A program made the translations under genes and the position numbers. The notes under the pieces were generated by a model that made no database searches, was not told the DNA's origin, and worked only from the letters and a program-made list of their open reading frames with translations. This document shows positions 36,849 through 64,000 of a stretch of 64,000 bases of DNA, piece by piece; position 1 is the first letter of the stretch; each line of letters starts with the position of its first letter. Source of the stretch: Escherichia phage ERS-1; sequence record PP337211. The stretch is one strand, 5' to 3'.

Positions 36849-36926
36849 ACTTCTCAACCAGTTTAAGTTTAAATTAATCTTTTGAGGTTTGTCGGAACAA
36901 TTTATATTAAACTGGTTCTTTTTAAA

Positions 36927-36971: not shown

Positions 36972-39900
36972 TATGTCTAATGTCGAAGCCACACACCACC
37001 GCCAGAGTTAAAGGATCGACTCCCATGGAACACCAGCACCTTCGGCATCAAGCTGAGCAAGATCTTCCCGTGGCTGGTTCAGGAAGGAGCTGCCGGGATC
37101 AATCGACTTCCCGTGGCGGACCTCCTCAACGCGCCCGGAAGGTGAACAGGCCTGCGCATGACCTTCGCCCAGCTCCGTCCAGGATGACCTGGCGGTGAAC
37201 GGTCGCCTTGGCGGGACGTTCAACCTGCTTCGCCGCCGGAAGGATGACGAAAGCGACGGGACCGCGGGCGCCGCCGCACGGGCGACTGTCCGTGAATGCC
37301 CGAACCTCCCTGGCCGGCTCGGCATGAGTTCGCCCTTCACGTGGTGGGGCCTTCCACCTCCCGGAGGAAGGCCGGGCGTCTGGGCGTCCGGACGATGTCA
37401 CCTGCCTGGAGCTGCGGCGGCGGCTCGTCACGCCTGCTCGGCGAAGGACCTGATTGGTGGGGCCTGGCTGTCTGGGTTGAAGCCCGGGACAGGTACTGTA
37501 CGAACACCGAGCATCCGAGGACCCTCCGGTGATGGTGGACATGGCGGGGATCAAGCGCAAGGACGCCAAAGGAAACTACCTGGGCCGTCCTACGGGATGG
37601 GCGGGGCGAAGATGTGCCTGGGCTCGGGCTCCCGACGATGATGGCCGTGCGCGGCCCCCGCTTCCGCTGTTCGACGCGGCACCTGCCCGGAGGGTCGGCG
37701 CCTGGTCGCGGAAGGGGCGCGGAGGTTCGAGGCCGCGGGGCCGGAGGGTCAGGCCCTCCTGGACACCCTCCACCCGGGTGCCCGTTCGCATCGGAGAAGC
37801 TGGCGAAGGCTTGCGAAGCCCGGGCGAAGGCCGTGGGCGGCGTCACATGACCTGAGCGGTCGCCGCTGCCGCTTCCCGAAGGAGGGGACGGGAACTACGA
37901 CTGGGACCCGGCGACCAACCGGCTGATCGGGCTCCTCCCGCGGACCGGGTCAAGATGGCGATGGTGGCCTGCGCGGAAGCCGGACTGGGGCGTCCCGGGG
38001 CCGGCGATGAGATCGCCTTCGGCTAGGCGAGGCGGAGGAGGCCGCGGAAGCTGCCTGGTTGCGGACGTGTACGCCGCCCCAACTCCCGTCAAGGTGGACG
38101 TGGAGATTGGGCAGGCTGGGGTCATCGCTTGGGCTGGACGGGAGCCGCCTTTGCGGTTCCGCTACGGGTGACGTGGGTGTCGGCTCACTCGTTTGCGGAT
38201 CGCTGCGGGTGTACCCGCTCGACCCCGCAGGAAGTCCGGGCGAACCCCTGGAGAACGATATGCGCCGTGGCAACGACAGCGTCCGTGGACCTCGAAGTGT
38301 TGGCGAGCGTGAGAAAGGGGGCCCTGGTCGACGGCGGCGGTGAGGAGGAAGTCTGGATGCCGGGTTGGTGTCCGCGCGGTCGAGAAGAAGGGCCTGCGGC
38401 CACCTGGACCGTCACCGAATGGATCGCCGGGTCAGAAGGGGCTGATATGAATGATCGCTGTGCGCTGGGAAGTTCTGGGCGGCGATGATCTGGGAGGCGG
38501 TCCTGGTCTGGCTCCTGGTAGGCGGTTGCCGGTGGACGCCTTCGAGTCCTTGACCTGGCCTCCTGCTGGGCGGCACTTCCTCGGAACGTTGCCCGGTTTC
38601 CGCTGAAGGAGGAGGTGAAATGAGCGAACGTCAAGACCGCCTGGGACCGCCGCGATGTTGGGCTGGCCGGTCGTCGCGGGCTGGAAGGGGTGATCAAGGT
38701 CGGAGCCGTCCTGGTCGGCCGGGCGGTGGCGCGGCTTCGACCGGGTTCAACGGCTTCCCGCCCGGTGCGATGACTCGCCGGAGCTGTACGCTGACCGCGG
38801 TGTACCTGCCGTCGGTGGCGGAGGCGTTGGCTCTTTAGGCTCGCCTGCGACGGCTTCGCTCTACATTCTTTCCCTGCTGTCCGAACTGTATGGAGGCCGC
38901 GGGGAAGGCGGGCGTGAAGCGGGTCGCCTTCCCGGTCGACTACGGGCTGCGATCCGGGGTGGGTTGCTGAGTGGAATTCGACGGTTGATGAGGCTTTGGA
39001 AGTCGCCCGCCGTTAGGGGTTGAAGCGAGGTGGGTAGATGTCTGAAGCCGGGCGCGGGACTCCCTCCGCCCCGTCATCCGGTCGCTGGACCCGGTGCGCG
39101 TGGAGAACCCCTTTCGCGCCCGGGACCCCGGATGTGAACTATGCCGGGCTGGATTGAATTGAAGTTCGCTGAACGCTGGCCGCCCTGGGCGGACCGCTTC
39201 CGAGTGGACCGACTCCACCTGCCCAGCACCTGGCTCACCCGTCGCCGGGTGCCGGGGCCGGGCCTTCCTCCTGCTGAAGGTCGGGAGACGGAGTGGTTGC
39301 TGATTCGATGGAGCGGTGGCCGCTGCGACGCCGGGCCGGGTTCCGCGAGAACGCCTGTATGAGGTCTGCGCTGCCGTTGGATGCCTTCCAGAAATGAGGA
39401 GATTTGTAAATGTCGCCGCGGTGAGGCGGGCGGAAGGTGAAAGCCCACCGCTACACCGCCGCTGGCAGGGTTGAACCAAATTGAGGCCGCGAAGGAGTAC
39501 GGGGTCCTTGCACCGCTACCGTGATGGGAAGCGGACCGCCGCCTGGACGATGAACCGTGCCTGTCCCGGCGAGGTCCGAGCCCGAGGTCTGCTTGCTGTT
39601 CCGCCGCCGCTCGGGCAAGACCTGCGCGAAATCGCCGCCGCTCTGGGCTGACTCGCCTCGGGTTGTCCAGATGGCAGGACGGAAAGCGCCGGTTGAGCGC
39701 CTTCGTGAATATTGGGGCTTTTGAGGGGGATCGGAAATGGCGGAACTGCCGAAGTGGAGACGAGGATGGTTGACTTCCTGAAGAAGCGGTGCCGGAGGGG
39801 CCGTGGGTCCTGACGGCCATCGTCCGGACGGGAAAACGGAGACGGTACCGTCTTGTTGCCCACTGCTTAAGGCCGCGGAGTGGATCGAGGGCATCAGGGC

Positions 39901-42900
39901 AAGCGGGCCCCGGATACTTCCTCGCCAACCCGGCTCCGCCGGGCGATGGACGTGAAAGCCTCGAAGGAGGGATGGCCCGCCTCGCCTGGCTTCGCGTCCA
40001 CCCCGCGAGCCGGGAGGACTTCGAGGAGGAGCGGGCGCGGGCGCTCAGCTGCTCCGGTCTGACCGCCGGAGCCGGCGGTCATCGTTGACTCGGGCGGGGG
40101 CTATCCGGGCTTTTGGCGTCGAACCCGTCCGAGGCCTGGAGATTGCTGGATCGGCGGCGAAGGCTGGAGCTGGAAGCGTAGGTGTTCGGCTGGAGAAGGT
40201 GTTTCAGGCGGACCAGTTGCCGGCCACGTGGACCGCATCATGCGCCTCCCGGGCGATCAACATGCCCCGCGAAGAAGGTGGAGAAGGGTCGCCTGCCGAC
40301 CCTCGCCCGTCTGCGTGGAGTGGAATGAGGCCGCTACCCCATCGAGGTTTACCCCCGCGGTTCGAGTCCAGATGGCGGAGCAGGGCCTGGCCGGGGGCCG
40401 TCCGAAGGTGAGATTGGGGCACGTCCGGAGGTTCGGGGACGGAGGAGCTGCGGAGCGGGCCCTTTAGGCGCAAGGCCATCCGTTACCCGCGCTGGCGCTG
40501 ATCGCTACTGGGCAGGGACCCGCCGGACCGACCAAGTACCCCTCCCGGTCGGAAGCCCTGTTCGGGTGCTCGCTGCGACCTCGTGCGGGCGGAGGTCCCT
40601 GATGAACGACTTCGCGGGTGATCGCCGGCTTCGGCGAAATCGCCGCGCAGCCTGTCCGGTAGGGCCCAACTGGGAAGGCTACGCCTGCGGGGGTTCGAAC
40701 GTGCCCTTGAGGAGGCGGTGCACCCTCGGCCTGGGCGGACCAGAAAGCTCGCCGTCGGTGGAGGTTGGCGGAAGTGCCGGGCGGTGAGGTCTGGGACCCG
40801 GCGATGAAGCGGTACGGGTCTGGGGGTCCTTCGAGGACTTCCGGCACGCTACCGCCGGAGGTAGTGGTTGGTCGGAGGAGGGGGTAGCCGTTGAGAAGGC
40901 CGCGGGAGCCTTCTGGATCGATCACCCGTGCTGCCCGGCACGAGACGGTTGGTTCGCCCCCGGCCTGAGGTCGAAGAAGCCTATGCCTCTGGCGCGGGTT
41001 CGCGCGCGATCCTCCCGGCGAGAGCTGCGCCCTCCCGGCACCTTCGTGAGGGCGCCGCCGGGGAACCCGGCTACCACGGTCACCTGGTCGGGTGGATGGC
41101 GCGGATGGTCCCGTTGCACGGCCCGGCGAGTGGCCGTGGTCCTCCGCGGTCGCCGCGGGCCGGGTTCTCTTCCTTCGCCGGTAGTCCTGGCGCGATGTTC
41201 GGGGGCGTCACGACTTCCGGCTTGCGACGAGCTGGTGGGCTCCTCAAACGCTTACCTTTGCATACCGTCCTGCTGTTCGGTGATGAGGCTTTCTTCGCCG
41301 GGAGGAGGCGAAAGCGTGCCGAGACCTCGCGACCGAAGAACGCCTGGTGATCGAGGGTAAGGGCGTGGACGCGGAAGCGGCCCCAACCATGTCCCTGGTC
41401 CTCGCCTCGAACGAAGATTGGGCGGTGCCCGCGGGTCTGGATGAACGCCGGTCTTCGTTGGTGGAGGTGGCGAGGGCCCGGTGACCCCGCCTGATTTCAG
41501 CGGTTGGGTGATGATCTGGAGGGCGCAGGACGCAGCCCGCCCCAGCCTTTCTCCCACCTATGACCTGAGCGCCTTCGAGGTTCGCCAGTTAACCGGGCGC
41601 TGCAGGACCAGAAGATCATGAGCATGTCGCCGGAAACCTGTGGATGTATGAGAAGCTGTGGGAGGGCCGGTCGCTCAAAGACCGACCAGGACTGGCGAAG
41701 CAAGGTGGTGAAGGACAGCTGCTGCCGCATGACGACGACGCAACGACCTCCGCGACCAGGGCCGGAACTTCCGCATGAGCCGCACCCGGCTTCGGCGGCT
41801 GGCTGCCCGGGCCTTCCCGGACGGCTGGCCGCGAAGTGAAATGGCGGAGATCGCTTGGACGGGTCAAGGTTGGCTTCGAGGTGATGATCGAAGAAGCGCG
41901 TGGCCACCACCCGCCGCCGGAGGTGTCCGGCGCCTGGGAGAACTTTGGCGGCCCGTTCGAGTGGCCCGGGGTCCAACCTACCAGGAGCCTCTGAGGACGG
42001 CCCGAAGTCGGAGGCCGTCCCTTCCCAGGATGCCCCCATGAGTGAGCACGCTGTAAGCGACGAAGCGGGAGCTGGAGGGGGCGGGGATCGCCTACACGGT
42101 GGAGCTGGCCGGAGAGGTCAGGAGGCCGCTTCGCCGTGAGGGGGAAAGCCCCGATGGTGACGTGCTCGCGGACTTCCTCCACGTCGCGTGGCCCTCGGTC
42201 GCTCGCCTTCGCGTCTGGTGGAAGACCGCCGCGCGCTGGAATTGACCTGAACCGCTTTACTTCTTCGGACTCTATCACTTCTTTGCCAGTTTGAGAAATG
42301 AACTGGTCCGGCCAGGTCGCGATTCGAGATTGGAAAGGAGCTGACCCTTAAATTAGGAAGAAGCCTTCCGCTGGTGCGGCTTCCCGATCCCGCGCGGTGG
42401 GGGTCCTGGTAAGTTGGGCGAGGACTCGCTGCGCGAAGCCCGTTGCGATTCGAGTTTGAAGTCGGTTCGCCTTCGGGCTATGCGTGGACGCTGACGAGGT
42501 TGTGTGACCGCCCGCTGGGCTGCTCCGCTCGCCTTCGCCGTCCTGCTGCTCTGGGGCCTGGCGGGGGTCTTTGCGGACTATCCTGGACCGCCCGGAGGTT
42601 TGTATCAGCTACCTGACCCGGGAGTGTGTGCGCGTGGTGAACGCGGACGGCTCCCCCGGGATCGTGTGGAGCCCTCCCGGACCGCTATGAGCGAGTGTGG
42701 GTGGAGAAGATTCTGTTTCAACCCTGAGAAAGGAGTTGCGCTACGTCTTTTTGGGTAGGGTGCCGCTTCACTCAGCGGTTGTTGCCTTTGGGGTGGCTGA
42801 GGAGAACCCCGGGGCCGTCGGTTTTCGGGACCGGCCTCAAGACGCCATCGCCTCCTCCTCCGCGAGGGCTGCGCATCCCTTCACGCTGGGAGTGCAAGCT

Positions 42901-45900
42901 GGAGTTCGGCATCAAGCGGATCGCGTCCGGGTCGATGACTTCAACGTGGTCACGATGAACAACCGCCGTCTGGGCTTCACCACGGAGGTCGGCAAGACCT
43001 GGAAGTGTGGCCTTCCGCGAGCTGTATGGCGATGGACGAACGGGGCGAAGTGTTCGAGGCCTGTGAGGTCCCGGAGGTCGCCGCGGACGAAACCGTGATT
43101 GTGGTCCGGGGCGAAAGTTCCTGGATGTCTGGGCTCCCGCTCCACCCTTCCCGTCCTCCTGAACCGCTGGAGTGCGCGAGGCTGTCCGTGCCCTTCCCGG
43201 CCGTCTCGGGTTTCGCGCACGACCGGGGCGCGAGCTACCGGCTGGAGGACCCTTGGGCCGAGGTGTCCGGAAGAAGGTGGACCTGACGGAGGATCGGACC
43301 TTCGGAAGTGGTCCTGGACATGCGCCGCCGTCCGCCGCGGGCTCTGCGAATCCGGCAGGCTCCTCTGATCAAGAAGGCCGCCACCGCGCCCAAGGTGACC
43401 TTCAGCGTGCGCTGGAGTTCGAGGGCGTGGAGCCGTCCTAGCCCTTCCTGGCGACCGTCTCCGAACTCGCCTGCTTCGACTCCTCGCCGCCGCTCCGCGC
43501 CGAAGGCTTCGCGCCTGGACGCATGGATGGCTCCCGCCAAGGAGGCGACCCCGACGCGCCTGAGCGAGCTGGAACGGACCCGGCTGGAGAAGGCCGCGGG
43601 CTTCTGCGAGCGGCTGGGCTTCGCCGTCCAGGAGTACCCGATCCGTTGCTGTGAGTTCCTGGGCGAGGAAGTCCTGGGCCGGCGGCGAGAGGGGGATCAG
43701 GTCCGGGAGCCTGGTCCTTGATGATGGGTACACGCTGGCCGGCACGCTGATCGAGGAGTTTCGCCTTCGCCCCTCCGCTGGACCATGAAACCTGCCGCGG
43801 GTTCCTGATGGACACGTTCGTGTCCTTGGGCGGAACAGACGTTGCAGAACCGCTATGAGCTGGAACACGCCCTTCCGTCTCACCGGAGATGCCTGACCGC
43901 CGCCCGGGCCGTCCGCATCCACGGCCACGCCCAGAAGGCGGAGCTGGAACGCGAGTTTCAGGAGCGACTGAACGAACTCGGCGGACGCCCAGGAGCAGAC
44001 CAGCCGGGCCTGGCCGGTGCTCTGAACGCCGCGGACCTCCCGATGGAGGAGCTGGGCGAGTGGGAGCTGGACGCGAGCTATTGGATGACCCCGGCTGCGC
44101 CTTCCTGAGCAAGCGCGAGGCGGAGGACGCCCGCCCCTCCTTGGGCGACCTCCTCCGTCGTTGCACGGCCTCGGCTAGGCACCTCCGAGGAGCCCGACTA
44201 TGACAAGGAGCCCGATCAGAAACCGCTGCCGATCTTCGCCCTCGCCCTGCTGCCCCTCGCCCGCTCGCGGTCCGGAGGACCGCCCCCGCAGAACGCCGGG
44301 AGACGGTCCGGCGTGCGGGTTGGCGGCTCCTCGCCTCGCCTCGCCCCTCCGTCCCGGGTCCTCCCGGCGGAGGTCGGGGCGAAGCCGGACCCGGCCCGCT
44401 TCGAGCGGCTGGAGTGCTGCCGCGACCCGCCCGACCCCTGGGTGCCGTATCGTTTGCGAACCTCGGAGAAGGGGTCAGAAGATGGAAAACCGGAAGAATT
44501 ACCCGCCTGGGCTGACGAAACCTTCGGCAGTGAAGCACCCGGTGGAAGTCGCCGCCGCGGATGAACGTGGAGGTGGCGGAGCTGGTCGCTGGCCTTGCCA
44601 CCGTCGCCGCCGTCCCGGTCGGAGGATGGACCCGGAGCTGGTCCGGGAACTCCGGAAGGAGTGCGCGGACGTGTTCGGTTGCTCGCCCGTCGCGGAGAAG
44701 CTGGACGTGGACCTTTGGGTCTGTGGTGAACTTAGGGATGGGGGTGCACCGCTGCTGGGCTGGACCCGGAGCCCGTCCGGAAGATGTGCGTGGAAACCTT
44801 CCTGGACCCCGGAAGCGGGCTGAAATGGAGCTGGAAGGTTGACCTTCCCCTGCGACTCGGGGCTCTTTGCTGGGCTTCCACTCCGCCGACGTAGCCCTGA
44901 ACTGGGTCGGTCCGCGGCAGGGGATCGCCGCCGAGCGGAGGACGCCGTGGTGCCGACCTTCCGGCCGGGGCTTCTTCGAGGGCCTGACGGGCGTGAAGGT
45001 TGTACCTGGGCCGCGAGCTGCGCGCCTTCTGGAAAGCCGGACCCTGTGCGAAGGAGAACCTGGGACGTCACGATGGCGGGTGTCCAGGCCCGCCTCGGGC
45101 GCAACCCGGAGGACCCCCGCAAGTACCAGGTGACGGTCCTGGTGTATAGCCAGTTTGCCCCGGCCTGAGCCTCCACGGACATTGACCTGGCCAGTGCGCG
45201 AGCCAGCACCCCTTCCAGCCGATCGGGACGGCGGAGCCGCTTGCGCGGAGTACCTGGGGAGAAGTACGGCGACAACGACCCCGCGGCGGCCTCCCGGGAT
45301 GCGGTCCGCGCCTTCGGGAGGAGTGCCGCTTGATGGCGGAACTCGCCCGCGACGTACCCGGAGAAGCTGAAGCGCCTCGAAGCCGACGTGGCCAAGCTGT
45401 CCGGTCAGAACCCGGCCCGCCGCGCCGCCTGCGCCACCCGTGGATCCCCGCGGAGAAGCTGCTGCCCGCGGGAAGTCGCGTGGCTGAATCAGCGCCTCGG
45501 GAACTCGGAGGGCCTGCTGTGACGGACCTGGACGAAGCGGCCCTGGCCGTTCTGTTCGAGGAGTAACCGGTACGCTTTCCGGTCGCGGACTGGGAGGAGT
45601 TCCTGGTCATTGCCCGGGCGTCCTCGCCTCGGAGCGGGTCCGCTGCCGGTCGGCGCTGGGAGTATTTTGTGGAGGACTACCTGGAAGCCGATCTGCGCCG
45701 CCTTCTCCTCGCCGGCGGTTGTCGTTTGCATCGCCCGCCTGGCGATCCCGGGACCGCGACCGCTCCGCTGAAGGAACTCCCGTGGTGGAGACGCCGGGCG
45801 CTGCTCGCCCTCCTCCCGAAGCCGGATGACGAGGGTCCTGATCCGGGGCGGGAGAGGTTGATGATCGAGAGAATGGCACCCGGGCGGCGGTTTTTCGGCA

Positions 45901-48900
45901 ACCTACGCCCTGAAGAGGGCGAGGAGGCTGCGCGGGTGCTTGGGCCGCGGCCTTCGAGGCGATTGCCCTGATCCCCTCCGCGAAGCCGGAGGAGGTCCTG
46001 GGTTACCTGGACCTGCGCGTATGGGCGTCCCACCGCGGATGAAGTTCTGACGGTACCCGGTCGCCCGCCGGGTGGAGTTCCGCCGGGCTCGCCTCGCGCG
46101 TGCCCTTCGCGGAGATTCAACGCCAAACCGCCCGCGGGGCCTTCGAGGACTGACCATGATACGCTTTGACAAGTCGAAGCCTACGTGGGCGACTTCCTGA
46201 GCGAACTCCGCGGGACGGGGCCTGGGCGGAACATCGTGAAGGACTCGCCCGCCCAGCTCGGCCCTACCCGGAGCGGGCGCTGTGGACCGGGAGGCGGCTC
46301 GCCTTCCTGGGCGAGCCCGGGACTACCGCCTGGAGCTGCGCCGGATCGAAGGCGGGCACTGGGAGGCGATCCGCGAGGAGCGCGACCCGGACCGCTTCAA
46401 CCTGCTGATGAGTCGACCTCGCGTAAGGAGGGCGACGCCATGAAACCAAGACTGAAGCGTAGCGCCCCAAACGGGATGCAGGAGCCGGAAGGCGCAGCGG
46501 GTGCCGCCGGTGAACCTTGACGCGGCGATCGCGGGGCCTCCGCCTTCTCGCCTTCGCCCTGTTCCGTCCGGGCTGTCGTGGAGGCTATCGTGGACCTGCG
46601 CGTAGACGGCCCGGTGTCCGACGGCGACGGCTCCGCGGCGACCTCCTGGGAGGAGCTGGAGCGGTCCTGGGGAGGAGACGGTGGAAGGTATGAGGGCCGG
46701 AACTTGAAGGAGAACCGGGCTGGGAGCTGTGCTGGCATCGTCCCGGAGGTTCCCTTTGTTGGAAGAGGTGACGGGCTACGCCCGCGCCTGCCCTGGAGGC
46801 CAGAATTCCGTTTCGGGATGCGGGGTACCGAAGGAGTGAGAGATGGATCGGAGCGAGTTCTGAGCTGGCTGCGGAGCCTGTTCGGCGGACGCCCGCCGCC
46901 CCGCCGCCGGAGTCGGACTGATCGCCTGGCCCGGATGATGGCCCCGGGCTTCGAACCTTGGCTGCCCCTACCCGGAGAACTTCCCCTTGGAACTTATCGA
47001 ACTGTGGGGGCGTGGTGAAAAATGATTCGACCGGTGACCTTCTCTGGGCGACCGCCTGGGGTTCGGAGTCGCCCGCCTGGTGCACCCGCCCTCCGGCGGA
47101 GGCACTGCCTTGTGGCTAAGGTCGAAAACCACCGCCAGTCCTTCCGGATGTCGCGGAATGGCCGTGGCCAGTCCAGTTTGCCCCTGGGCGCGCCTGGTCG
47201 CCCCGCGTCGCCGCCTGGCCCCGCGGCATCGTCCTGATCCAGGAGCGGACGCGACCCCTGCCCCGGCGGCGAACTGCCGAAGGCAGCTGCCCGACTTCTT
47301 CACCGACCTGAAGCCGGAGAACTTCGGCCTGATCGACGGTGGTGGCGGTGCGGCATACGCCCTCCGCCTCGCCTCCTCGAACCTGGTTGGGGAAGGCGAA
47401 GATGAAGAAGGTGAAGAAGGACGAATGGCGACTGCCTGACAAGATCCATGCCCGATGGGAACGGAGCTGGGGCGGAAGTGTTGAGGCGACGGCACGCCGC
47501 TGCTGAGTTCGGTGATCCGGGCAGGCGCGGCCGACTTCGCGGACGCGATGCGCCTGGAAGTGGAGAAGAAGCGGGCGGAGGGCCGGCGGTTGGACGATCT
47601 TACCCGGTGCCGGCTGGATTCCCTCGCGGTGATGCTGCTGGATCGCCTGGAGAAGGGCGACCCCGTGGACGGTGCCTTCGCCGGCGCCGCAGACCTACCG
47701 CGGCGACGGAGCGGACGGGTGGGCCCTCCGTCCTCGGGGCGACCTTCCGCGAATGGCTGGATCTCCGCCTGGAGGCCCGGGACATCGTTGCCTCAACCTC
47801 CAAGCCGCTTGGAAGGCCGCGGCCCGGATCGCGGAGCTGGAGGGGATCGCCGGACGCCTCGAAGGCGAGCGCAACGAGGCCCGCCGGTCGCTGGAGGAGG
47901 AGCGGGAGGTGTTCGGGCAGGAGCTGGAGGCGGAGCGGACGCCCGCCGCCGGTCGGAGCTGAACCTGGCCCGTGCCGGAGGGGTTCACCGCGTGACGGAA
48001 GGCGAACCGCCGCTGCCGGGAGTGCGGGCGAGGTCGGCGCAGCGGGTCGGAGGTCGGCCGGGCGGTACCGGATCGCCGCGGACCGCGCCTTGACCTGGGC
48101 GAACCCCGCGACCCCTATCAATTCCGCCGATGGCCCGCCGGAAACCCCGCCGCGGGGAGTACGTCTGCCGCGGGGCCTATCCGGTTCCCGCACCGCTTCG
48201 CAGGCGGTCGCTGCTCGGGCTACTTCATCGCCGTGGAGCAGCGGAGTTGGCACTAGGGGACCGGCGACTGCCGCCTACTGTAACTGCCTCAACCGGACGG
48301 AGGCCGTGCCCACTGCGAAGTGGTGGAGGGCGGCGAGTCGGTCCAGGAATGCCCCGTGTGGCAAGAGTTTGTACGATTCAATGAGATCAAACTGAAGAAG
48401 GAGAAGTGAGATGAGTGATGACAACACGATGGACAGGCGTGATGATCGACCTGGAGACGATGGCGACCGGCCCCAGCGCCGGGGTCGTTTGTCGGGGCCA
48501 TCCGTCGTTCAACTGCCGAACCGGATTGGTGAAGCCGGACCTGTTCGAGGTGGACGTGGACCTTCACGCCGACGCTGGGCGGCGAGGTCGATGCTTCCGG
48601 CGGTCGGTCTGGCGGGACCAGGTGGACCCTGCCCAGCGCTGGCCGAAGGCGATGCGCTCCGCGCTGACCGACCTCGCCCTCCTGGTCGGGGTACCCGGAC
48701 CGAAGCGGGTCTGGGCCGGGGCTGTCCTTTGACGTTGCCATCTAGGGTTACTATCGCCGGCGGGCGTCCCGATCCCCTGGCATACTCCGCGCTGATGCTG
48801 ACACCCGAACCGTGTATGACCTGGCGAAGGAGCGGGGCTGGTCGAAGCCGGAGGGGGAACGGGGCCGTTCTGCCGCCTGGAGGACTGCCGCTGCCGTACC

Positions 48901-54648: not shown

Positions 54649-55479
54649 AAAGGGCTGTTTTATATGGCCTTTTTGCCCGCTTGACTTTTTACTTTTTCGG
54701 ACGTGGAAGTGAAGCGCGACCCCTCGAACCTAAGCGGAGGACGCCGCGTGCCTGCTTGGGTCTGTTGCCCGTCGCTCCCGCGCCTCCCCCGCGGGCGAGC
54801 GCGACCCGCCCTTGGCGAACGCAGGCTTCGCCAGACTCGCGGCGAGGATGTCCTTGGGCGTGAGGCCGGGACGGATCGCCGCGTGATGCGCGATTGACGG
54901 GCGGTGCTGCCCAAGGGGGAGGTGATGTGCCCATTGAGAAACTGAAGCCGAAGCCGATGGTGCCCTTGCCCTTGGATGGAAGCAGTACCTGGAGTTGTTC
55001 CGCACGTCCCGACCTGGGTGGGTGGAAGTACCGTGCGCGGAGGCGTGGGCGTCTCCGGCTCCGCCGTTCCACTATGCCGTTGAAGAATGACCCGGAGTTT
55101 GCCCTGGCTCTGCAGGACGCCCGCCAAGCGTGGATTGATGAGATCCTGTTGCGCGGCCCTGAAGCGGGCGCGGGACGGCGCGGCAGCGCCCGATCGGTCG
55201 GGGAAGTTCAAGGACGAAATTATTGGATGAGCGGGTGTACTGTGATTCGCTGATGGCCTTGACGCTCCGCGCCCGCCGTGCGGAGTTCGGGAGGACGGGA
55301 GGACGTGGCCTGTATCACTGCCCTCGGCCCGGTGGGCGCCGATCGTCCCGGGCCCCGGCGTCGACCGGACGACTGGGAATTGTTTGGGACCTCGCCCGCG
55401 GGACCGTGGGCCGTCCGACCGGGAGGGCGATGTTCGCCTGGTCCCAAGCGGGCAGGCGGTTGCCATCGCCGCCCGCCCG

Positions 55480-56072
55480 GACTACCCGATCGAGCGGCGC
55501 GAGGCGGAGCCCGGCGAGCTGCGGGCACCACGTGGACCCGGAGACGGGAAGGAGTCGGAGGCGACCTGGTGCGGGTACGGGTTGCAGCTCGCCTTCCTCG
55601 GCGTCCCGATCTTCGAGGTGCTGTATGAGGGGACGCGCGGCCCGGGCAAGACCGACTGCCGATGGACTTCCTCCAGCACGTGGGGAAGGGCTACGGTTGG
55701 AGCGGCGGGGTCCCCGTTCCGTCTGGCAGGGACCCCCGCTGTCGGACGTGATCAGACACAAAACCAACAAGTGGTTCAAGCGTTTCTTCCCGGCTAAGTA
55801 CAGGCAAGGTGGGTTGGCGACCTTCCCGGCACGGCGAGGAGCTGCTGCTGTGTCGGCGGTCGCCGGAGGATTATTGGAACTACCCACGGCCACGTGCCCG
55901 TGGATTGGCTGGGAAGAACTCTTGGGCTGGGCCTGACAGCGCCACCGTTGCGACGTCCTGCCGCCGCTCCCAAGCCGGGGATGCCCCGCCGCGACCCGGG
56001 CGACCGGCCCCACGGCCCCGCCCCTGGCTGGGTCAGGCCCGCTCCCGCCTCCCCCGTTGCGCGGTCGGGTGA
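55480..56072 (+). CDS. Candidate P-loop NTPase, frame-disrupted; function unassigned
   Basis: Walker A-like GTRGPGKT at 55,630-55,653 in context ..GVPIFEVLYEGTRGPGKTD..; protein-like continuation in other frames (..FLQHVGKGYGWSG.., ..LSDVIRHKTNKWFKRFFPAKY..). Boundaries arbitrary. Confidence 0.2.
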
Positions 56073-57688
56073 TCCTGGACGCGATGCGAGACGGCGAGCG
56101 CGAACCGCCCCGGGTCGCCTTCCCGGTTCCTTTCCCATGAGAACCGGGTTGCTCCTCGCTGACCCGGAGGGCCTGGTATTCGAGCCGCGGCCCGGAACCC
56201 CTCCGACTCGCCGCCTGGCTCCACGGCTCCTGCAGGTTGTTTGCGGGAGGATGTTGTACGAGGCTTGCACCGCGGGACGCACCGCGGCGCCCTCCGTCCC
56301 GCTGTCGGTGATCCCGAAGCGGTGGAAGATCGACCTGCGGCTTCCACCGGGCCGGAGCCCTTTGCCGTCCTGTGGTGGGCGGAGTCGAATGGGAGCCGTT
56401 CGAGCGGAATGGCCGCGTGTACGGAAGGTGCGGGGGCGATCTGTACCTGATCCTGTAGCGGGTACGGCTGGAACGGGAACGCGAGCAGGGCGTCCTGCGG
56501 CTCGCCTCGGAGGTCGCCCAGTGGGTGAAGGACCGGGAGGAGGATTGGGCGCTGGAAGGTCGGGTCAGCCCTGGCCCCCGCGACCTTCTCCTCACGTGGA
56601 GGTATGGGGCCTGGATTGCTGTGGAGGCGGAGAGAGGGTGTGCGCCTGGACGCCCGCGGGAGGCTGGGCTCGCGGGTGGGCTGGGAGGGGTTGGCTGTCG
56701 GAGGGCGCTGCCTCCGGCGGCGGGGACCGCGCCAGGTCCCTGGGCTGTTCGGTTTTTTCGACCCGTGCTGGTGTCGTCCAGACGGTCCCGCGCTGCCCCG
56801 CGATGAGGTGTACCTGGGATGACGTGAAGGCGGAGGCGGAGGACCGGTTGGTGACGCGACCGCTACCGCGTGCGGGGTAAGCTGCGTGGTGCGGTGGTGG
56901 CCCGCAGAGGCTCGGCCGGGTCCTCGCCTTCGGGCGAGAATCCGCGAACCTGGAGAACCGACGGCCGGCGAGACGGCAGCCCTGCCGACCTGCGGGGCGT
57001 ATTAACCGCGCTCCCGCGCTGGCCCACGCTCCAGACGCCGCCTGGGCGGGACCGAAGGGCGCGCGAGGCGGGCGAGACGTACCTACCCCGCCCTCGGAGG
57101 AGACGGCAGGGTGGGCTATCGGGAGCGCCTGGCCTCCGCCGCTCCTCCTCGGCGGTTGAACCTGGGCGCCTGGACCTGCCCTGCAGCGGAGCCCTTTGCC
57201 AGCCGATCAAGCCGGCCAGGACGTGCCCGGAGGCGATCCAGGAGATGATCCTGCCTGACGTGGACCTCCTGGGGCTGCCCACGCGTTCGCCCGTCCTGTG
57301 GTTCCGCCAGCCTATCCGGTGAGGCCCTGGCCTCCTCGTCCAGACCGCCTCGCCCGGCCCCGCGGAGGATGGCCTACCCGGACCTGGCGGATGACCGCCG
57401 GGAGGGCCTGCGCCCTGACTGGGTGATGATCCAAGCCGGAGGCGCCCGCTGTTGGCCCGGTCGGAGGTGATCAAATGGGGCCCGAGTCCTCTGCGTGCTG
57501 CTGTCCAAGTTACGAGGCGGAGGCAGGACGGCTTCGCGCAGGCTTGGGAGCGCTGTCCGCGTCCTGGAGCTGGGCCTTGTCCCGGCTCTGGCAGCCGGTG
57601 AGAAGTTGGTGGTCCCGCAAGGAGGAGTGGGTGCTGGCGGATGAGCGGGCCATGGGGCTGAACCACGTCCCTGTGGTTGCCTTTACGC

Positions 57689-57776
57689 CAGACGACTACA
57701 AACGGAATCTACAGCACCTGAGTATGTATTGCTAAGGTTAGAGGGAAACACGATAGAATCCAACAGCACCTAAAAA
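57689..57776 (-). repeat. Repeat element E copies D2 (57,689-57,720, right terminus of block 1, inverted relative to copy B) and D1 (57,721-57,776, 5' half plus inner-stem arm), both in reverse orientation
   Basis: Reverse complement reads TTTTAGGTGCTGT-TGGATTCTATCGTGTTTCCCTC-TAACCTTAGCAAT-ACATACT-CAGGTGCTGT-AGATTCCGTTTGTAGTCGTCTG. Confidence 0.7.
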
Positions 57777-57995
57777 GGTTCAACTTTTTACTAAATAATA
57801 AATGTTGTAGTATCTTCTTAAAACGAAAAATTTAATTTGCTTTAAAACCTTCCCAATTTTTTTTGCCTTTTTTTAACATACGTCAGAACATGGAAGAATG
57901 GTGGCCGTTTTTTACACTGTGAAGAAACAATTTTGAACTTTTAAATGACTTCCATTTATATTGTTTTAATTTCCTTTTTTCCCGTTTGTTGTTAA

Positions 57996-58128
57996 TTTTT
58001 TTTTTTAGGTGCTGTTCCGGATTTATCGTGTTTCCTGATTAACCTTAGCAATACGTAACTGAACGAAGTACATAAAAACACCAATTGCTAAGGTTAAAAG
58101 GTTACACAAACCCTGGACAAGCAGCACC
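57996..58128 (+). repeat. Repeat element E, complete copy C: T11, AGGTGCTGT, 23 nt, TTAACCTTAGCAAT, 31-nt loop, ATTGCTAAGGTTAA, 24 nt, CAGCACC; abuts high-GC block 2
   Basis: Nested inverted repeats (outer 7 bp GGTGCTG/CAGCACC; inner 14 bp) read directly; loop similar to copy A loop. Confidence 0.7.
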
Positions 58129-61100
58129 CTCCCTTTGCGGTGTTCTCCGGCTCCGCCTTGTCCTTTGAGAGCGGAGGGGTGTCGCTTGTTGATGCAGCGG
58201 GCGATGGCGAACATGGACCAGAGGTGCGGGTGGTCCGCGAGGGCTGACGGATGCTTCTCGTCCGGTCCTGGTCCCACCCTTCCGGTTGGCTCCTGGAAGA
58301 TGTTGGGTACTGCCTGTTCCAGACCGGGTCCGCGGTCGGGCCGGGGCTTCCCGGCCTTGCGGTCCGGTAGATGTCGCGCCGGGCCTTCAAGGCGGCGACG
58401 TCGTCGACGCGCGGGGTGGTCGGTGCTGGGTCCTGGTCGGGCCCTCCGATGACGGCCTTGATGTCCTTCAGGGCCGTCTCCCTGTGGATGTCGCGGACCG
58501 TCTCGCCGTCCGCCAGGGCCTCCCGCGGACCTGGGCGATGGCGCGGTGCTTGTTGGTCCTTCCCTGGTCCTCCTCGACGGGCTTCCCGCCGTCGCGCTCC
58601 TGGATGTGCTTTGGCTTCCAGCGGCGTGTCCTGAAGGCCGGGTCGCCGCCGTTCGCCTTCGACCGCCACCCTGCGTTGGTACCTGTAGATGGTGCTGATG
58701 GCCGCCCTCAAACCTTACCGCCTTCACGTCCGGGTCCCGCCCAACCAGCTCCGCGACGGCCTTGGCGGCGGCTTGGGTCTTGATCCGGTCTGGGCCGGCG
58801 GTGGTCGCTCCGGCGGCGGCGGTGTAGTCCCCGATGATGGCGATGCCGTCCGGGGCGTGTTGCCGGGATCGGCTTGTGGTCCGGGGACGATGACGTTGAT
58901 GACGCGGGCGGATCGCGGGCCAGGCTGCGCGGGGGTGTGCTCTGCCGGAGCCGTATGCCCTGCCCGTCGATGTACTTCGGTTGGTTTTCCAGTTTGGTTG
59001 AAAACGGCGGAGCCGGAGCCCCCGCCTGGGGTTGCTGTTGGACCCTGCGCGATCGGATGATCTTGCGCTCGCCGCCGTCCTCCTCCGGCGGGGCTGGTTT
59101 CCCGACCTCTGAGTCTGGGCGAGCGGCCTTCGCCGCCCCAGGTTCCGAACCGCGGGCTCGGCTCGTCGTCGTCCGCGCGGTGGAGACCTGGCCGGTGGGG
59201 GGCGGCTTCCCCTCACCTCCTGGAGGGCTGGCCCGTCGGTCCGGGTGAAGGTTCGGGACGCGCTGGCCGTGGCGGCCCCGCGGCGATCATTTCACGCCTT
59301 CCAAAGCCAGTGCCGGTTCGCCGGTTCCGGGCTTCCCGCGGCGGTCCAGGCGTGTCGTCGCGTAGGTCGTTGCCGCGCTCCGTCGCCGGTTCGGTACCTG
59401 CCGGCGGGCTTCGACCCGGCACGGCTCGCGATGGTCTTTCCGGGCTCCGGCCTGGTTCTCCGCGGGCTGTCGGCGAAGGCTTTGGTGCGCCCCGGGCTGA
59501 ACCGCTTTTGGAGGTGTTCGATCATTGCTGGAGCCCTGCTGTAGCCCGCTTCCCGAATTTTGCGATTGCGTGGTCGTTGCCGACCGCGGCCTGGCGCTCG
59601 AAGCTGTGGCGGATGTCGTCGTGGGTGACGATCCCCGGGATTACCGGATTGACCTGATGGAGGTGTACATGCCCGACGCGCGCTCGCGATTTCGTCGGGA
59701 TGGTCCTGAAGGCTGATGGCCCCGGAGGCTCGTGCCGTTGTGGTCGTTGCCGGTGTTCGGTGACTTCTGGGCGTAGCTGTAGGGGTTCCGCTTCGGAGGT
59801 CGATGGCCGGATGGGGTAGCAGACGGCCGGGAAGAAGACTGGGCCGGGAGTTGGCGAAGGCTTCCGCCCCCGCCTGGGTGTTATGGGGCGCTTTGAAACG
59901 GTGAAGGGGTCCGTGAAGCTGGAGAAGCAGCCCGCGGCGGAGGTCCGGACTTCGAGAGGCATTTTGCGGACCTGCTCGCCGTAGTTCACCGGGACGCTGA
60001 TGAGGCCGGTGCCGCGGTAGCCCCGGAACCCGCTGTCGACGTAGAAGGCGCAACCCACTGTAGCCCCATAAGGCTCCGTCAGGATCGCCTCGCTGCAGGG
60101 GCGGGCGCGGGAGCCTCGCTTGTCGTTGTGCTTGTCCTGGCACCTGCCCTGAAGGGGCTTGGCGTTCGGGATGCGGATGTGCGGGAGGTAGGTGACGACC
60201 CTTTGAAGCCGGTAGGCCCAGCCCTTCACCTCCTTCTTGTCGTCTCTCCTTCGCGTTGCGGACCGTCCCCCCTGCCTTGCCGGAACTTCGCGCGCTGGCG
60301 CCGGTCCTGCACCCTTCTCCCCCATCGGGCCCGGAACTCCCGTTGGTTCGGTCCGGCGGCGAAATACTTGTAAGCCTCCTGAGCGGCTTCGCCGGTGCCT
60401 TCCTGCCCTTGCCTGCGTGGTCCGGTCATTCTCCTTCAACTGTGAAAAAAGTCTTGAGCGCCTTACCCGGAAGAAGTAAGCGGCGTTAATCGGCCCCGGC
60501 TCGCCACGTTGTTTCCGGGAGGTCCCCTGGCCTTCGCTCCTCCGAATGCCGGCGACCGGCGAACTGCCGGAACCGCGCGGCGACCCTTCCGCGTCATATC
60601 CTCCAGGTTGTCCTTTTGGGACCCGAGGGAACAAATGCTCGGGGTTGACGCACAACGGTCGGTCGCAGCGATGAACTTACGTTATCGCCGTCGGGATGGA
60701 CCGTCGAACCTGGCCGAAGGATAGCCGATGAGTGCCGTCTTAGTCTCATGTTGGCGTGCTGCTTATCATTGACTGGGAGCCGTTGGTTGGTCCCGTCTCC
60801 GGTCTTGATAGTGGGCGTCGAAGTAGGTGAGCCGGTCCGTCGATTACCCCATGTTCGGAATGATGGGGCGTGGGATGGACGAAGCCCGTTGAGCGGTTGC
60901 TGCGCTTTAGCTTTTGGGTTGGTAACGGGTTGGGGGAACGGGGCGGAGGCGTCCCGGGCTGCGTCCGCGTACCCGTAGCCCTCGTCGTATTACCGGTCAC
61001 CCGGTTGCCGGGTGCCTGGCCGCGGCCTTCCCCATGTACTCCCGGGTGGCGTCCTGGCTCTGCAGTATCCTTGTGGAGGATGACGTTGTAGTTGCGGGCC

Positions 61101-64000
61101 CGCCCCCTCCAAGCCCTCTTCAGTGCCCGGCGGCGACCGTCCCCGAGCTGAGACTGATGACCGGGGTCCCGGAGTCCGGGAGGTGCGGGGCGGTGCGGAC
61201 GGCCTCCGCGGGCGTTCTCCGTGATCGACTCCGGGAGCTTCGGGTGTTCGGCTGTAGCTGTCGTGGGAGTTCTCCCGTGCTTCTTGGCCGGACGGGGATC
61301 GCGGAGCGGCCCGCCGGCATGTCCAGGTCCGCCCCGAGCTGGCGAGCGCGCCCGCCGCCGGACGCGCGGGGCGTCCGCGGCCCCGTCGCGCTTGAAGCGG
61401 GGCCAGTAGTCCACGGCCTGTTTCCCAGCTGCTGGCAGGCGACCGCCCGGCCCGCCTTCGAGCGGTACGTGTCCGGCTGCCGATGGTGGTTCTTGTGGTC
61501 TCGATATGGGCGAGGCCCCGCCAATCTCGCTGAAGGACGGCACCGGGAGCGGGTGCTCTCCCCGCTTCAGGATCGGACCCCGTTGAGCGGGCGTTTGACC
61601 GGGCGTCGTTGACGACGTTGCTGCCTGGCGTGGTCGAGGAAGGCCCGTGCGGCGGAGGGCGGCCTGCCCGGTTCGAGCCCGCCGTCGATTTCCCGGATGT
61701 TGTTCCGTGGGTAGTGGCCGTTCGACGGTGGGGATTTTCCATTTACACAGCACCGTTCTACCTCTGCATGTTCGGCGGGTGGTTGCCCGGGTGGGCGGGG
61801 CGAGGTCCGCGAACCGCTGGTTTGCAGTCCGCCACCCGGACGCTTGATCGCCTCGCGCTTGGGCTTCGCGTTCTCCGGGTACTGTGAGCCTCGCGCTGCT
61901 CCGCGTTGCGGCCTTCTCCGGGTCCTTGAAGGTTAAGGCGGCGTCGTGCCGAAGTCGGCCGCACTTCACCGGTTCGACCTGTCCGCGATCTTGAAGCCGA
62001 TCCGGTCGGACCGAAGCCGTCGTGCTCCTGGGCGCGGGCGGAGACGGTGCGGAAGGGCAGGCGCTCCTCCGTCGCCCGGGCTCTCCCGTGCCCCGCCTCC
62101 GGGCGGTCGCCGTAGCGGGCCTGGAGGGAGGTTGCGGAGTCACGGTATCGGCCTGTAGCGGCGGTGCTCGCGTCCCCGGGGGCCTGTGCTCCCCCGGCGG
62201 GCGTCTCCTCCTCGTCGCGGGCCGCGACCTTCCCGGTGCGGCAACTCCTCGCCCTCCTCCACCAGGAAGGAGGCCACCCGGCGTGGTAGCTCCAGAATAA
62301 CCGAGGAGCCCGGGAGCTGCGGCACGGAGAAGTCCCCCGCCTCCTCCGCCCGAACCAGGGCCGTGTACACGGGTCCAGATCGCCGGTGGTGATCAGGTGT
62401 CGGCCGGGGTCGTCTCGATGTCCGGTCGCGGGGCAAGTTCTGCTCGGCTTTTTCTGGGTATGCGTGACTGATTTTCCCGGCTCAGGTCTTTGCGATGTCC
62501 GGTTCAGAGAATTGGCGACGAAGGAAGGCTCCGGCGGGACTTTTCGTCACGTGATACGGGAATGGACTTGTCTGGCGCCGCCGTCGCCGTCCTCCGTGAT
62601 CCCTGGTGAACCCGGCAGGAGCTTGAAGGGCTCCGTTCTGTATCCCCGCTCCGCCGGGCACCTGCCCGGCGGGGGTGCGGTGTGCGCTCCGAGGCTCCCG
62701 TTACCCTTGCCCTTGTCGGCCTGGCGGGTCTGGCGGGCGTCTGCCTTCGGCGGACTTTGCGGCTCGTGGGCCGGGATCGCGTGGCCTTCCGGGACCTCCG
62801 ACGTGGAACCGCTCGTGCCGTCCGCGTCGAAGGCGGAGCGGACCCCGCAGCCCTTTGGTCGCTTGTCCTGCTGAAGCCGGAGTGGGCGGTGGCTTCGGTC
62901 CTGGGCTTGTTGCTGCCCTTGGGCTTCGACCTGTTCGGCCGGTCCTCCTGTTTGGGCGGGACCCCCTACGTCGGGAGACGGCCGCTCCGAGCCCTCGCGG
63001 CGGGGGATCGGGGCGTGGCCCGGGCGGCAGGTTGGCGCCGCGCGGGCGCGGGCCTTCCTCCTCCGCGGACTTCGGAGCCTTCTGGGCCTTCGGAGGCGAC
63101 GGGCGGGGGTTGCGGTTTGTTTGCGGTTTCGACCTTCTGGGTTCGGCCTGCTGCTGCTCGGCACTTCCGGGCGCGCTTCGGCGGCGCCAGGCTTCTGTGT
63201 GGGGGTATGGCGGTGGTCTTGTCGGCAAGCGGTGGACGTTCGGGACGGACTTGCCGTTGCGGAAGGTGCCGATGACTTCGTCGGGACCTGCTCGACCGGG
63301 CCGGGCTGGACCTCGCTGGGAGGCTTCGGTGTAGGCGACGTTGTTGAAGTTGATGGTGTTCATGGTAGGCTCCTTCTGGGGTTGAGGTGCGATCTTGTTC
63401 GACCGTGAGAGAAATCTTAACCCTGCCCCCGAAGAAGTAAAGTGGTTTGACTAAACTTTTTCAGTTTCCCGTCCGAAGGCCAGGTGCCCGTTGGACGGCG
63501 GAGGGCGAACCGTTGGCGCCTCTTCCCAGAAGGCCCGGGCGGCGTCTCGTGCCCTGTTCTCCTGTACCAATGGTTGCGCCCCGAGGTGTGCGGGAACCCA
63601 GCGACCTCGAAGCCCCAGCGATGTTGGGTTGCACTGGTGGAAGTCCAGGTGCTGGGCCGGGTAGCCGAAAGCCTCTGCGACGTTCCGCCCAACGAGGATG
63701 ACGTGCCGACCGCCCAACAAGGGCTTCCCTCGCGGCTGCGGGCCCCGCGTCCCGGGCGGGCCGCTGTCGTCCCGCTTCCAGCGCCCCGGGAAGGTGTGGA
63801 GCAGGTGGTGCGGTCGAAGGTCTTGAGGTAGTCCTTGGGCGATAGGCCTGCCTGCTCGCCCGACGCCCTCCCGCGGAGGACCGCGGAGGGGAGCCAGGGG
63901 CCGGTCCGGGTCCGCGTTAGGTCCTGGCGCTGGCCGATCTGGGCTTGTTCGTTCTTTCGGGCACATTTCTCTGGGTGACGTTCTGTTTGAGGTCCGCTCC
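58129..64000 (-). other. High-GC block 2 (at least 5.9 kb, continues past window end): frame-drifting protein-like coding signal on the minus strand
   Basis: Minus-strand translations contain protein-like stretches (e.g. ..PDGIAIIGDYTAAAGATTAGPDRIKTQAAAKAVAELVGRDPDVKAVRFEGG.., ..AILTEPYGATVGCAFYVDSGFRGYRGTGLISVPVNYGEQV..); plus-strand ORFs are low-complexity. Confidence 0.5.
58440..59000 (-). CDS. Candidate protein-coding segment in block 2, frame-disrupted; function unassigned
   Basis: Protein-like segments in two minus-strand frames (..EALADGETVRDIHRETALKDIKAVIGGPDQDPAPTTPRVDDVAALKARRDIY.. and ..DGIAIIGDYTAAAGATTAGPDRIKTQAAAKAVAELVG..); no catalytic motif recognised; boundaries arbitrary. 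Confidence 0.2.

Follow-up and report, generated by a model that had tools for sequence, protein, structure and literature searches.

Frame switching in two high-GC blocks of phage record PP337211: a probable nanopore sequencing artefact, with a likely link to a known type of DNA hypermodification

Layout of the window

The window, i.e., the whole stretch of 64,000 nt analysed here (record PP337211, Escherichia phage ERS-1), changes from a GC content of ~0.35 to ~0.68 at roughly 36.97 kb and then stays high up to 64 kb. An AT-rich interval at ~57.72-58.09 kb lies between both high-GC blocks, such that the two blocks described by the first-pass annotation are reproduced. Barcode and Y-adapter sequences are found in the zones 1-49, 36693-37041 and 57689-58135, where the native barcodes NB02, NB03, NB04, NB05 and NB07 occur. 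The block boundaries carry Y-adapter top and bottom sequences as well as AAGGTTAA-NBxx-CAGCACCT units. Barcode sequences were checked against bioRxiv 10.1101/2024.02.26.582005 and Y-adapter sequences against PMC9965538. The features are listed below as we interpret them. All barcodes given there match with their flanks at 90-100% identity (blastn-short), except for the noisy NB07 copy, which was located by local alignment.

1-10, minus strand: where the T4-like read ends when followed in its own direction, Y-adapter bottom-strand remnant (sequence)
11-49, minus strand: NB03 with its flanks AAGGTTAA and CAGCACC (39/39 identity to AAGGTTAA-NB03-CAGCACC)
50-36676, minus strand: T4-like (Tequatrovirus) read, used as internal accuracy control (GADU22 and SA20RB alignments)
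36677-37041, minus strand: first read junction as a whole (barcode and adapter matches)
36677-36691, first junction: T15, not in the T4 reference
36693-36732, first junction: NB02, first copy
36733-36780, first junction, minus strand: Y-adapter top strand
36800-36927, first junction: short T4-like read
36928-36967, first junction: NB02, second copy, followed by a noisy adapter-like stretch
37004-37041, first junction: noisy NB07 with CAGCACCT
37042-57688, sequenced strand minus, genes plus: block 1, a single raw ONT read from a Pseudomonas phage of the M6/YuA type, NB07
57689-58135, minus strand: the "spacer", i.e., the second read junction (barcode and adapter matches)
57689-57719, second junction: partial NB02 with CAGCACCT, an adapter remnant next to it
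57734-57771, second junction: NB04, first copy
57772-58006, second junction: noisy T4-like read of 235 nt
58007-58046, second junction: NB04, second copy
58047-58082, second junction, minus strand: Y-adapter top strand with leader remnant, then a bottom-strand remnant
58090-58128, second junction: NB05
58136-64000, sequenced strand and genes both minus: block 2, another raw ONT read, independent of block 1, from an M6/YuA-like phage, NB05, continuing past the window end

Given this layout, the whole window is very probably made up of five or more Oxford Nanopore reads, raw and unpolished, which are joined end to end with barcodes and adapters left untrimmed. The source would be a multiplexed phage-sequencing run with native barcoding and LSK109-type Y-adapters, and the chain appears to be either a single unsplit read or a concatenation made by software. 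The read direction is fixed by the Y-adapter: only the minus strand of the window matches its top strand, including the leader bases, for which the library contains no complementary oligo. That is, the window is the reverse complement of the reads. An exact search for the sequence across a barcode/insert join in three contig collections (viral, metagenome and genome) returned no source record.

Two details differ from a simple chain model. The T4-like read is flanked by mismatched barcodes (NB02 at one end, NB03 at the other), and block 1 starts with an inverted partial NB02 without Y-adapter. Furthermore, a noisy stretch lies at 36782-36799 in place of the terminal NB02 that one would expect, and it could be assigned to none of the twelve barcodes tested (NB01-12).

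The T4-like read is 94.7% identical to phage GADU22 and 97.0% to SA20RB, the latter with 2.6 indel events per kb. Its substitutions are mostly transitions, which indicates real divergence.

Identity of the high-GC blocks and loss of reading frames

Block 1 aligns to Pseudomonas phage PaTs-2 with 98% coverage and block 2 to phages Luminis, 185, PSP2 and LKO4 with 99-100% coverage at 82-83% identity. With regard to Yuavirus membership, both nucleotide colinearity and a common gene order with classified members are present; AN14 is classed as species Pseudomonas virus M6 in the taxonomy of its reference record. Block 1 runs from DNA polymerase A via primase and the small and large terminase subunits to portal. 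Judged by these alignments, the blocks stem from two separate DNA molecules of Pseudomonas aeruginosa phages of the M6/YuA type (Yuavirus), covering adjacent genome regions on opposite strands.

When searched with tblastn, reference phage proteins match in plus frames only in block 1 and in minus frames only in block 2, and every reference gene is scattered across 2-3 frames. In the reference regions that match, all annotated genes lie on the strand of the respective tblastn matches. Both observations agree with the first-pass assignment of coding to the plus strand in block 1 and to the minus strand in block 2, and they supply the protein matches that had been proposed there as a check. The claimed convergence on the spacer stands as far as the opposite coding strands are concerned, but the spacer itself is made up of barcode and adapter sequence together with a short read of its own. 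That is, genes seem to converge on the junction because neighbouring regions were read from opposite strands.

We compared the error load of the blocks with that of the T4-like part and of the references among each other. Against its reference, block 1 shows 81.7% matches, 11.6% substitutions, 1.5% insertions and 5.2% deletions, with 888 indel events. Indel events occur at 40.8 per kb in block 1 and 40.5 per kb in block 2 (82.0% match); they are mainly 1-2 nt long, and deletions outnumber insertions. The respective values are 1.1 indel events per kb between references (96.8% match) and 2.6-4.8 per kb in the T4-like part, with a match of at least 97.0% in the T4-like read. Frames hence switch far more often than in the T4-like part, as had been noted from the letters. 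The interval of 60-250 nt given for the switches was too long: a frame change occurs every 26 nt on average, with a median of 19 and a maximum of 186 nt, a frameshifting indel is found every ~27 nt, and in-frame stretches of at least 60 nt make up just 24-26% of the blocks. The peptide MAPAKEATPTRLSELERTRLEKAAG... quoted as an example is present at 43527 on the plus strand, and the respective example stretch (43537-43692) is the third longest in-frame run of block 1.

The period-3 power is 3-4x the median in the window compared to 55-60x in reference sequences. Thus, 3-periodicity is merely local, i.e., of the signal that was to be checked, the local component is found and the sustained one is not. 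Ten long window ORFs from both strands gave zero Pfam matches, correct-strand ORFs included, for which the broken frames are responsible; for the long opposite-strand ORFs, this bears out their earlier reading as artefacts. Programmed frameshifting or recoding was ruled out, as the frame shifts every ~26 nt in every gene.

We hold with high confidence that the frame switching is a sequencing artefact, i.e., a property of the sequence and not of the DNA. The base-caller would miscall or skip ~17-18% of positions, so that frames break, and the genes themselves would be intact in the phage. Among the three options that the first-pass annotation offered without choosing, this corresponds to the gene array of a high-GC phage with frequent indel errors, in line with 98-100% coverage by Yuavirus and ~41 indels per kb. 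The chain of separate reads, the accidental nature of the convergence, which stems from read orientation, and TG sites as error cause had escaped that annotation.

Errors at the T of 5'-TG-3'

Among the thymines of 5'-TG-3' on the sequenced strand, 71% are wrong in block 1 (n=1178) and 76% in block 2 (n=320), compared with 9% for TC (TG vs. TC, chi-square p = 1e-285 and 8e-74, respectively). Errors are most frequent at the T of TG itself, and a halo of ±3 nt holds 67-68% of the errors and 66-73% of the deleted bases. Beyond TG, the context at -2, -1, +2 and +3 shows no further dependence. The effect is uniform along both reads, remains unchanged with a second reference and with reversed alignment direction, and does not differ between block 1, where the template strand was sequenced, and block 2, where it was the coding strand. 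It is missing in the T4-like read as well as in the comparison of reference with reference. TG sites are spaced at one per 18-19 nt on the sequenced strand. They make up 29% of all T in the read strands; in the references, counted over both strands, their share is 33%.

At positions at least 7 nt away from any TG, the error is still 6.5-7.4% and thus above the 3% divergence of the references, which implies some other contributor as well. This residual error, along with the frequently low quality of chained or unsplit reads, is what one would expect if both Yuavirus reads were plainly poor (bad pore, failed-quality bin, high-GC bias) for reasons unrelated to modification. We regard this as unlikely, since random or homopolymer noise would not produce 71-76% at TG vs. 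9% at TC in two independent molecules, and the T4-like read, which belongs to this chain as well, reaches an accuracy of at least 97%.

In window orientation, the match is 68% and 63% for A and 92% and 91% for G (block 1 and block 2, respectively). A centring of the errors on the window-strand T was rejected: the centre is A in window orientation, and the reads follow the minus strand. If the reads ran on the plus strand instead, the A of 5'-CA-3' would be the affected base and the signal would point to adenine modification; the barcode flanks are symmetric and give no direction in this respect. Such an orientation is very improbable given that the full Y-adapter top strand with its uncomplemented leader bases is found on the minus strand only, while the supposed starts on the plus strand have at most 14 nt of adapter, like read ends. 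In addition, the modification known in M6-like phages sits on T.

A decayed or hypermutated phage remnant with genuine frameshifts, related to the decayed pseudogenes considered by the first-pass annotation, would explain why every gene is frameshifted and why the block ORFs lack Pfam matches. Yet the block limits coincide exactly with sequencing barcodes, and the flanks of the blocks are ONT adapters, not genome. The differences track the T of the sequenced strand in both orientations and not the coding strand, the indels are 1-2 nt long, deletion-biased and as dense as one per 27 nt, and the close relatives are all intact at 1.1 indel events per kb from each other. We consider genuine decay to be hardly credible. 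The same can be said of a synthetic or model-generated sequence that mimics coding statistics, for which the local rather than long-range 3-periodicity would speak, given that the blocks are colinear end to end with real phage genomes, are embedded in a genuine ONT adapter/barcode structure and show a motif-specific, chemically meaningful error pattern.

Probable thymidine hypermodification and relation to known systems

Block 2 contains a frameshift-riddled copy of a thymidine hypermodification cluster, which we located by tblastn of PSP2 proteins and also checked against the AN14 annotation:

58188-62405, minus strand: thymidine hypermodification cluster as a whole
58188-58420, minus strand: 5-hmdU DNA kinase helical domain, partial (coverage 25%, truncated by the read start)
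58448-58977, minus strand: 5-hmdU DNA kinase (HMUDK kinase, coverage 97%)
59056-60405, minus strand: Radical SAM enzyme (coverage 96%)
60537-60845, minus strand: HNH endonuclease
60909-61612, minus strand: PLP-dependent enzyme (coverage 90%)
61630-62405, minus strand: amino acid:DNA transferase (ADDT; coverage 93%)

Pfam domains were taken from the PSP2 reference proteins (HMUDK_hel 1e-55, HMUDK_HMUD1 4e-18, PALP 6e-10, ADDT 1e-46); Radical_SAM scores 1.7e-4 with 22.3 bits, which is under the Pfam cut-off of 29.5 bits. The cluster is of the M6 type and not the PaMx11 variant with FAD oxidoreductase/acetyltransferase, following the distinction made in PMC5889632.

In M6, ~30% of T is replaced by 5-(2-aminoethyl)uracil (5-NedU; PMC5889632). 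Restriction-resistant sites of M6 DNA are enriched in TG/TC motifs, and the M6 kinase is reported to modify TG as an unpublished result (both PMC6449724). A related pathway of an Acinetobacter phage aims at TG (PMC13458397). The target context in M6-like phages is thus known so far by inference, i.e., from sites that resist restriction (TG or TC) and the unpublished kinase result. As to how nanopore base-callers handle DNA of Yuavirus or DNA with 5-NedU, the papers searched yielded nothing specific beyond speculation and general remarks that hypermodified phage DNA sequences poorly.

The TG error signal is most likely caused by 5-NedU, the base known from M6 (Lee 2018, 2021). M6-like phages would convert the T of TG into 5-NedU via the kinase / amino-acid:DNA transferase / PLP / radical-SAM pathway, which block 2 itself encodes, and a base-caller trained on canonical DNA would fail at the modified T. 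Somewhat more tentatively, both reads probably represent a single-molecule, base-resolution map of the hypermodification, in which nearly every 5'-TG-3' is modified and TC, TA and TT are not. Modification of all TG would explain the reported share of modified T (~30%), and the signal favours TG over TC as target in M6-like phages. Motif-specific errors are no strict proof of motif-specific modification, since a base-caller might tolerate random modification outside TG. T4-like DNA is expected to carry glucosyl-hydroxymethylcytosine, and the T4-like read is nevertheless base-called well; hence, modification does not always ruin accuracy.

The frame-broken blocks are an artefact, yet one that reflects a type of DNA hypermodification already known: the TG-specific failure agrees with the sequence-specific thymidine hypermodification known for this M6/YuA-like group. 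The region is unfit for reading as genes, pseudogenes or genome arrangement, as the junctions between T4-like and high-GC parts and the "convergent" layout are joins between reads. Conclusions on gene content, a chimeric phage, horizontal transfer or recoding drawn from the window would be spurious. More generally, hypermodified phage DNA may yield records that resemble decayed coding sequence, and a dinucleotide-resolved error table against a relative tells chemistry-driven error from biology. If the errors indeed map TG modification, archived phage runs could be mined for such modifications via ordinary base-calling errors.

Compared with known untrimmed, chimeric or unsplit ONT native-barcoding reads, the window shares the adapter/barcode units at every junction, the several barcodes per record and the deletion-biased 1-2-nt indels. 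In contrast to typical unsplit reads, the chain is unusually long (at least five molecules) and its barcode arrangement is irregular at two junctions.

The M6/YuA group (Yuavirus, Mesyanzhinovviridae; PaTs-2, AN14, LKO4, PSP2) is colinear with the blocks over 20.6 kb and 5.9 kb and has the same gene order, i.e., DNA polymerase A, primase, terminase, portal and the 5-hmdU kinase/AADT/PLP/radical-SAM cluster. The HNH endonuclease is found in block 2 and PSP2 and is absent from AN14. The raw identity of the blocks to this group is just 82%, which is attributable to read error, such that the true divergence is resolvable only to ~6.5% or less.

Finally, with respect to systems using the 5-HMUDK pathway (5-NedU of M6; resistance to restriction enriched at TG/TC, Flodman 2019; alpha-dapT at TG in Acinetobacter phage SH-Ab 15599, NAR 2026), the evidence presented here is a base-calling error signature and not chemistry. 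TC, the second target proposed from restriction data, is without excess error in our reads (9%). As in these systems, the signal lies on T in TG context. For M6 with its ~30% of modified T, the correspondence extends to the affected fraction, which is 29-33% of T here, and to the gene cluster, which is present in both.

Composition of the window and its chain of reads

Up to 36.9 kb, the window has a GC content of about 0.33, and from 37.0 kb onwards one of about 0.68, with an AT-rich gap inside the high-GC part at ~57.72-58.09 kb. On reading the junctions, we recognised Oxford Nanopore (ONT) library sequences. We searched for the top adapter of ONT and for its native barcodes (NB), the latter with their flanks, i.e., AAGGTTAA-barcode-CAGCACCT. 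Published sources confirm these sequences, namely PMC9965538 (Y-adapter, top and bottom) and bioRxiv 10.1101/2024.02.26.582005 (NB01-NB05 with flanks).

Library sequences (coordinates, strand, identity)
11-49, plus: NB03, 39/39
36693-36732, minus: NB02, 97.5%
36928-36967, minus: NB02, 100%
37004-37041: NB07, noisy, by local alignment
57689-57719, plus: NB02 (partial), 96.8%
57742-57771, plus: NB04, 96.8%
58007-58046, minus: NB04, 90.2%
58047-58073, minus: ONT top adapter, 27/27
58090-58128, plus: NB05, 39/39

Given adapters and barcodes at its junctions, the window consists of distinct nanopore reads in series, with their adapters untrimmed; the chain may be a single physical read left unsplit or may have been concatenated by software. 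Exact matching of the barcode-insert junction sequence gave no source record in three contig collections (viral, metagenome and genome). The base following NB07, 37042, is the first base of the block 1 phage alignment.

Reads of the chain
50-36676: T4-like read, 36.6 kb
36800-36927: short T4-like read, ~130 nt
37042-57688: block 1 read
57772-58006: short T4-like read, 235 nt
58136 to beyond 64000: block 2 read

Barcode units are symmetric and the Y-adapter is asymmetric, its top strand carrying a 5' leader to which no library oligo is complementary. Only the minus strand of the window has this top strand in full, leader remnants included (GGTGTTTTT-ATGTACTTCGTTCAGTTACGTATTGCT), at 58098->58047 and 36780->36733, both times directly 5' of a barcode unit. 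At plus-strand 'starts', the adapter spans at most 14 nt, as at read ends. Thus, the reads run on the minus strand, i.e., the window is the reverse complement of the reads.

Block 1 matches Pseudomonas phage PaTs-2 and many other Yuavirus genomes (98% coverage by block 1, ~83% identity), and block 2 matches Luminis, 185, PSP2 and LKO4 (99-100% coverage by block 2, 82-83% identity). AN14, classified as species Pseudomonas virus M6, is a further near-full-length match; on its map, block 2 lies at ~7.3-13.0 kb and block 1, oppositely oriented, at 17.7-38.7 kb. Within the block-matching regions, all reference genes are on one strand. Opposite-strand reads placed side by side therefore take on the appearance of convergent gene arrays. 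The first-pass annotation had both blocks converging on the spacer between them, a claim that has to be dropped: 57689-58135 consists of barcodes, adapter and the 235-nt T4-like read, and the convergence is without biological meaning.

Some junctions are irregular. The start of block 1 (read orientation, 57689-57733) carries an inverted truncated NB02 unit, i.e., AGGTGCTG plus the reverse-complement NB02 without TTAACCTT. The Y-adapter is absent there and NB07 is at the other end; this start may have arisen by chimeric ligation to a free barcode adapter. In read orientation, the 36.6-kb T4-like read has NB02 (36693-36732) at its start and NB03 (11-49) at its end, and is colinear with T4-like references throughout despite the two different barcodes. 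This mismatch suggests that barcodes were cross-ligated or that a join of two T4-like molecules went undetected. Two T4-like reads have a homopolymer run between the CAGCACCT of the barcode and the beginning of the insert: T15 (36677-36691) and T11 (57996-58006), which are A15 and A11 when read in the direction of sequencing. The T4-like reference has no counterpart of the T15 at this position, the T11 is outside the sole phage-matching stretch of the short T4-like read (57772-58006), and such runs are not seen at Yuavirus read ends; they are probably artefacts of base-calling where a read starts. At 36782-36799, the end of the ~130-nt T4-like read, an NB02 end barcode is expected. Instead, the plus strand shows GTCAATTGCGTAGTGAAGT, for which there is no match among the twelve barcodes tested (NB01-12).

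Error load and frame switching

Alignments (match; substitutions; inserted; deleted; indel events/kb)
Block 1 vs PaTs-2: 81.7%; 11.6%; 1.5%; 5.2%; 40.8
Block 2 vs PSP2: 82.0%; 10.8%; 1.4%; 5.9%; 40.5
PaTs-2 vs AN14 (two references): 96.8%; 2.7%; 0.30%; 0.14%; 1.1
T4-like read (60-20000) vs GADU22: 94.6%; 4.6%; 0.44%; 0.39%; 4.8
T4-like read (20000-36692) vs SA20RB: 97.0%; 2.6%; 0.22%; 0.15%; 2.6

Read error is the cause of the frame switching. In block 1, 800/888 indel events shift the frame (one per 27 nt), such that in-frame stretches have a mean of 25.8 nt (median 19, maximum 186) and only 58 reach at least 60 nt, covering 24% of the read. Frequent switching was thus correctly noticed by the first-pass annotation, while its rate of one switch every 60-250 nt has to be raised several-fold. 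Its example peptide stretch is genuine and ranks third among the in-frame stretches of block 1 by length. A tblastn search with reference proteins recovered all tested genes, each split over 2-3 frames. The respective frames are plus only for block 1 and minus only for block 2, in agreement with the coding strands proposed before. A Pfam search of ten long window ORFs gave 0/10 with a match. A local 3-periodicity is present, but at 3-4x median power (999-nt windows) it is far below the 55-60x of the references. The frame switching does not reside in the DNA itself and is not a real feature of it.

Transitions prevail among the substitutions of the T4-like read, suggesting real divergence. With an identity of at least 97% to a reference and 2.6 indel events/kb, this read contrasts markedly with the Yuavirus reads of the same chain. 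At CG sites (60-20000 vs GADU22, n=512), C->T amounts to 12% and G->A to 10%, compared to 2-6% in other contexts. Both strands show this excess symmetrically, and it could be real divergence or a modified-C effect. T4-like references matching 50-36676 encode alpha- and beta-glucosyl-HMC transferase homologues; glucosyl-hydroxymethylcytosine is therefore expected in the DNA of this T4-like phage, and yet its read agrees this closely with a reference.

Errors at TG and their probable link to thymidine hypermodification

In window orientation, errors are concentrated at A of the reference (68%/63% match in blocks 1/2 vs 92%/91% for G), and are so in both blocks despite the opposite coding strands presented. 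The reads have a reduced A fraction (0.197 -> 0.147 and 0.155 -> 0.110), which explains the AT skew of -0.31 in block 2. In read orientation, the affected base is T, and whether it is miscalled depends almost entirely on its 3' neighbour (chi-square p = 1e-285 for block 1, 8e-74 for block 2).

Error at T by context, read orientation (block 1; block 2)
TG: 71% (n=1178); 76% (n=320)
TC: 9%; 9%
TA: 15%; 27%
TT: 31%; 26%

Of the T in TG, 26-29% come out as C, 13-15% as A and 9% as G, and 21-25% are deleted. The error peaks at this T and declines over ±3 nt; of all errors, 67-68% fall into this halo, as do 66-73% of the deleted bases. Positions -2, -1, +2 and +3 around TG have no effect on the error. 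At least 7 nt from a TG, the error is 6.5-7.4%, i.e., above the divergence among references. TG spacing on the read strand (18-19 nt) agrees with the median in-frame stretch of 19 nt. The TG effect is uniform along both Yuavirus reads, and neither a different reference nor aligning in the opposite direction changes it. It is found neither in the T4-like read nor in the reference-vs-reference comparison.

In phage M6, ~30% of thymidines are replaced by 5-(2-aminoethyl)-2'-deoxyuridine (5-NedU), which is also predicted for YuA, MP1412, PAE1, LKO4 and AN14 (PMC5889632). The pathway leads from 5-hmdU in DNA via a 5-hmdU DNA kinase, an amino acid:DNA transferase and a PLP enzyme to a radical SAM isomerase, and acts "in sequence-specific contexts" (PMC8989533). 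TG and TC are enriched among restriction-resistant sites of M6 DNA, and TG modification by the M6 kinase is reported as an unpublished result (PMC6449724). A related pathway of an Acinetobacter phage has TG as target (PMC13458397). The share of T that lies in TG is 29% for the two read strands and 33% for the references, both strands counted. Block 2 is itself an M6-type modification cluster: Pfam finds HMUDK_hel, HMUDK_HMUD1, PALP and ADDT, with Radical_SAM sub-threshold, on the PSP2 reference proteins, and tblastn located all modification-cluster proteins of PSP2 in the window.

From the 5-NedU literature on the M6 group, the TG share of T and the block 2 gene cluster, we infer that the base-caller would fail at a hypermodified T in TG. 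Alternatively, the modification may be placed elsewhere and miscalled at TG only. With hypermodified TG as the preferred reading, the error signature speaks for TG instead of TC as the context that an M6-like phage modifies, which is the one point of wider interest. In the literature searched, we found no paper linking nanopore data with 5-NedU.

Chimeric ONT reads with adapters left on are a well-known type of artefact. Likewise, Yuavirus genomes and their thymidine hypermodification are already known. Block 2 has an HNH homing endonuclease gene at 60537-60845, between the radical SAM and PLP genes. PSP2 and LKO4 also carry an HNH homing endonuclease within the modification cluster, whereas AN14 lacks it, with an alignment gap at read positions 3154-3522.
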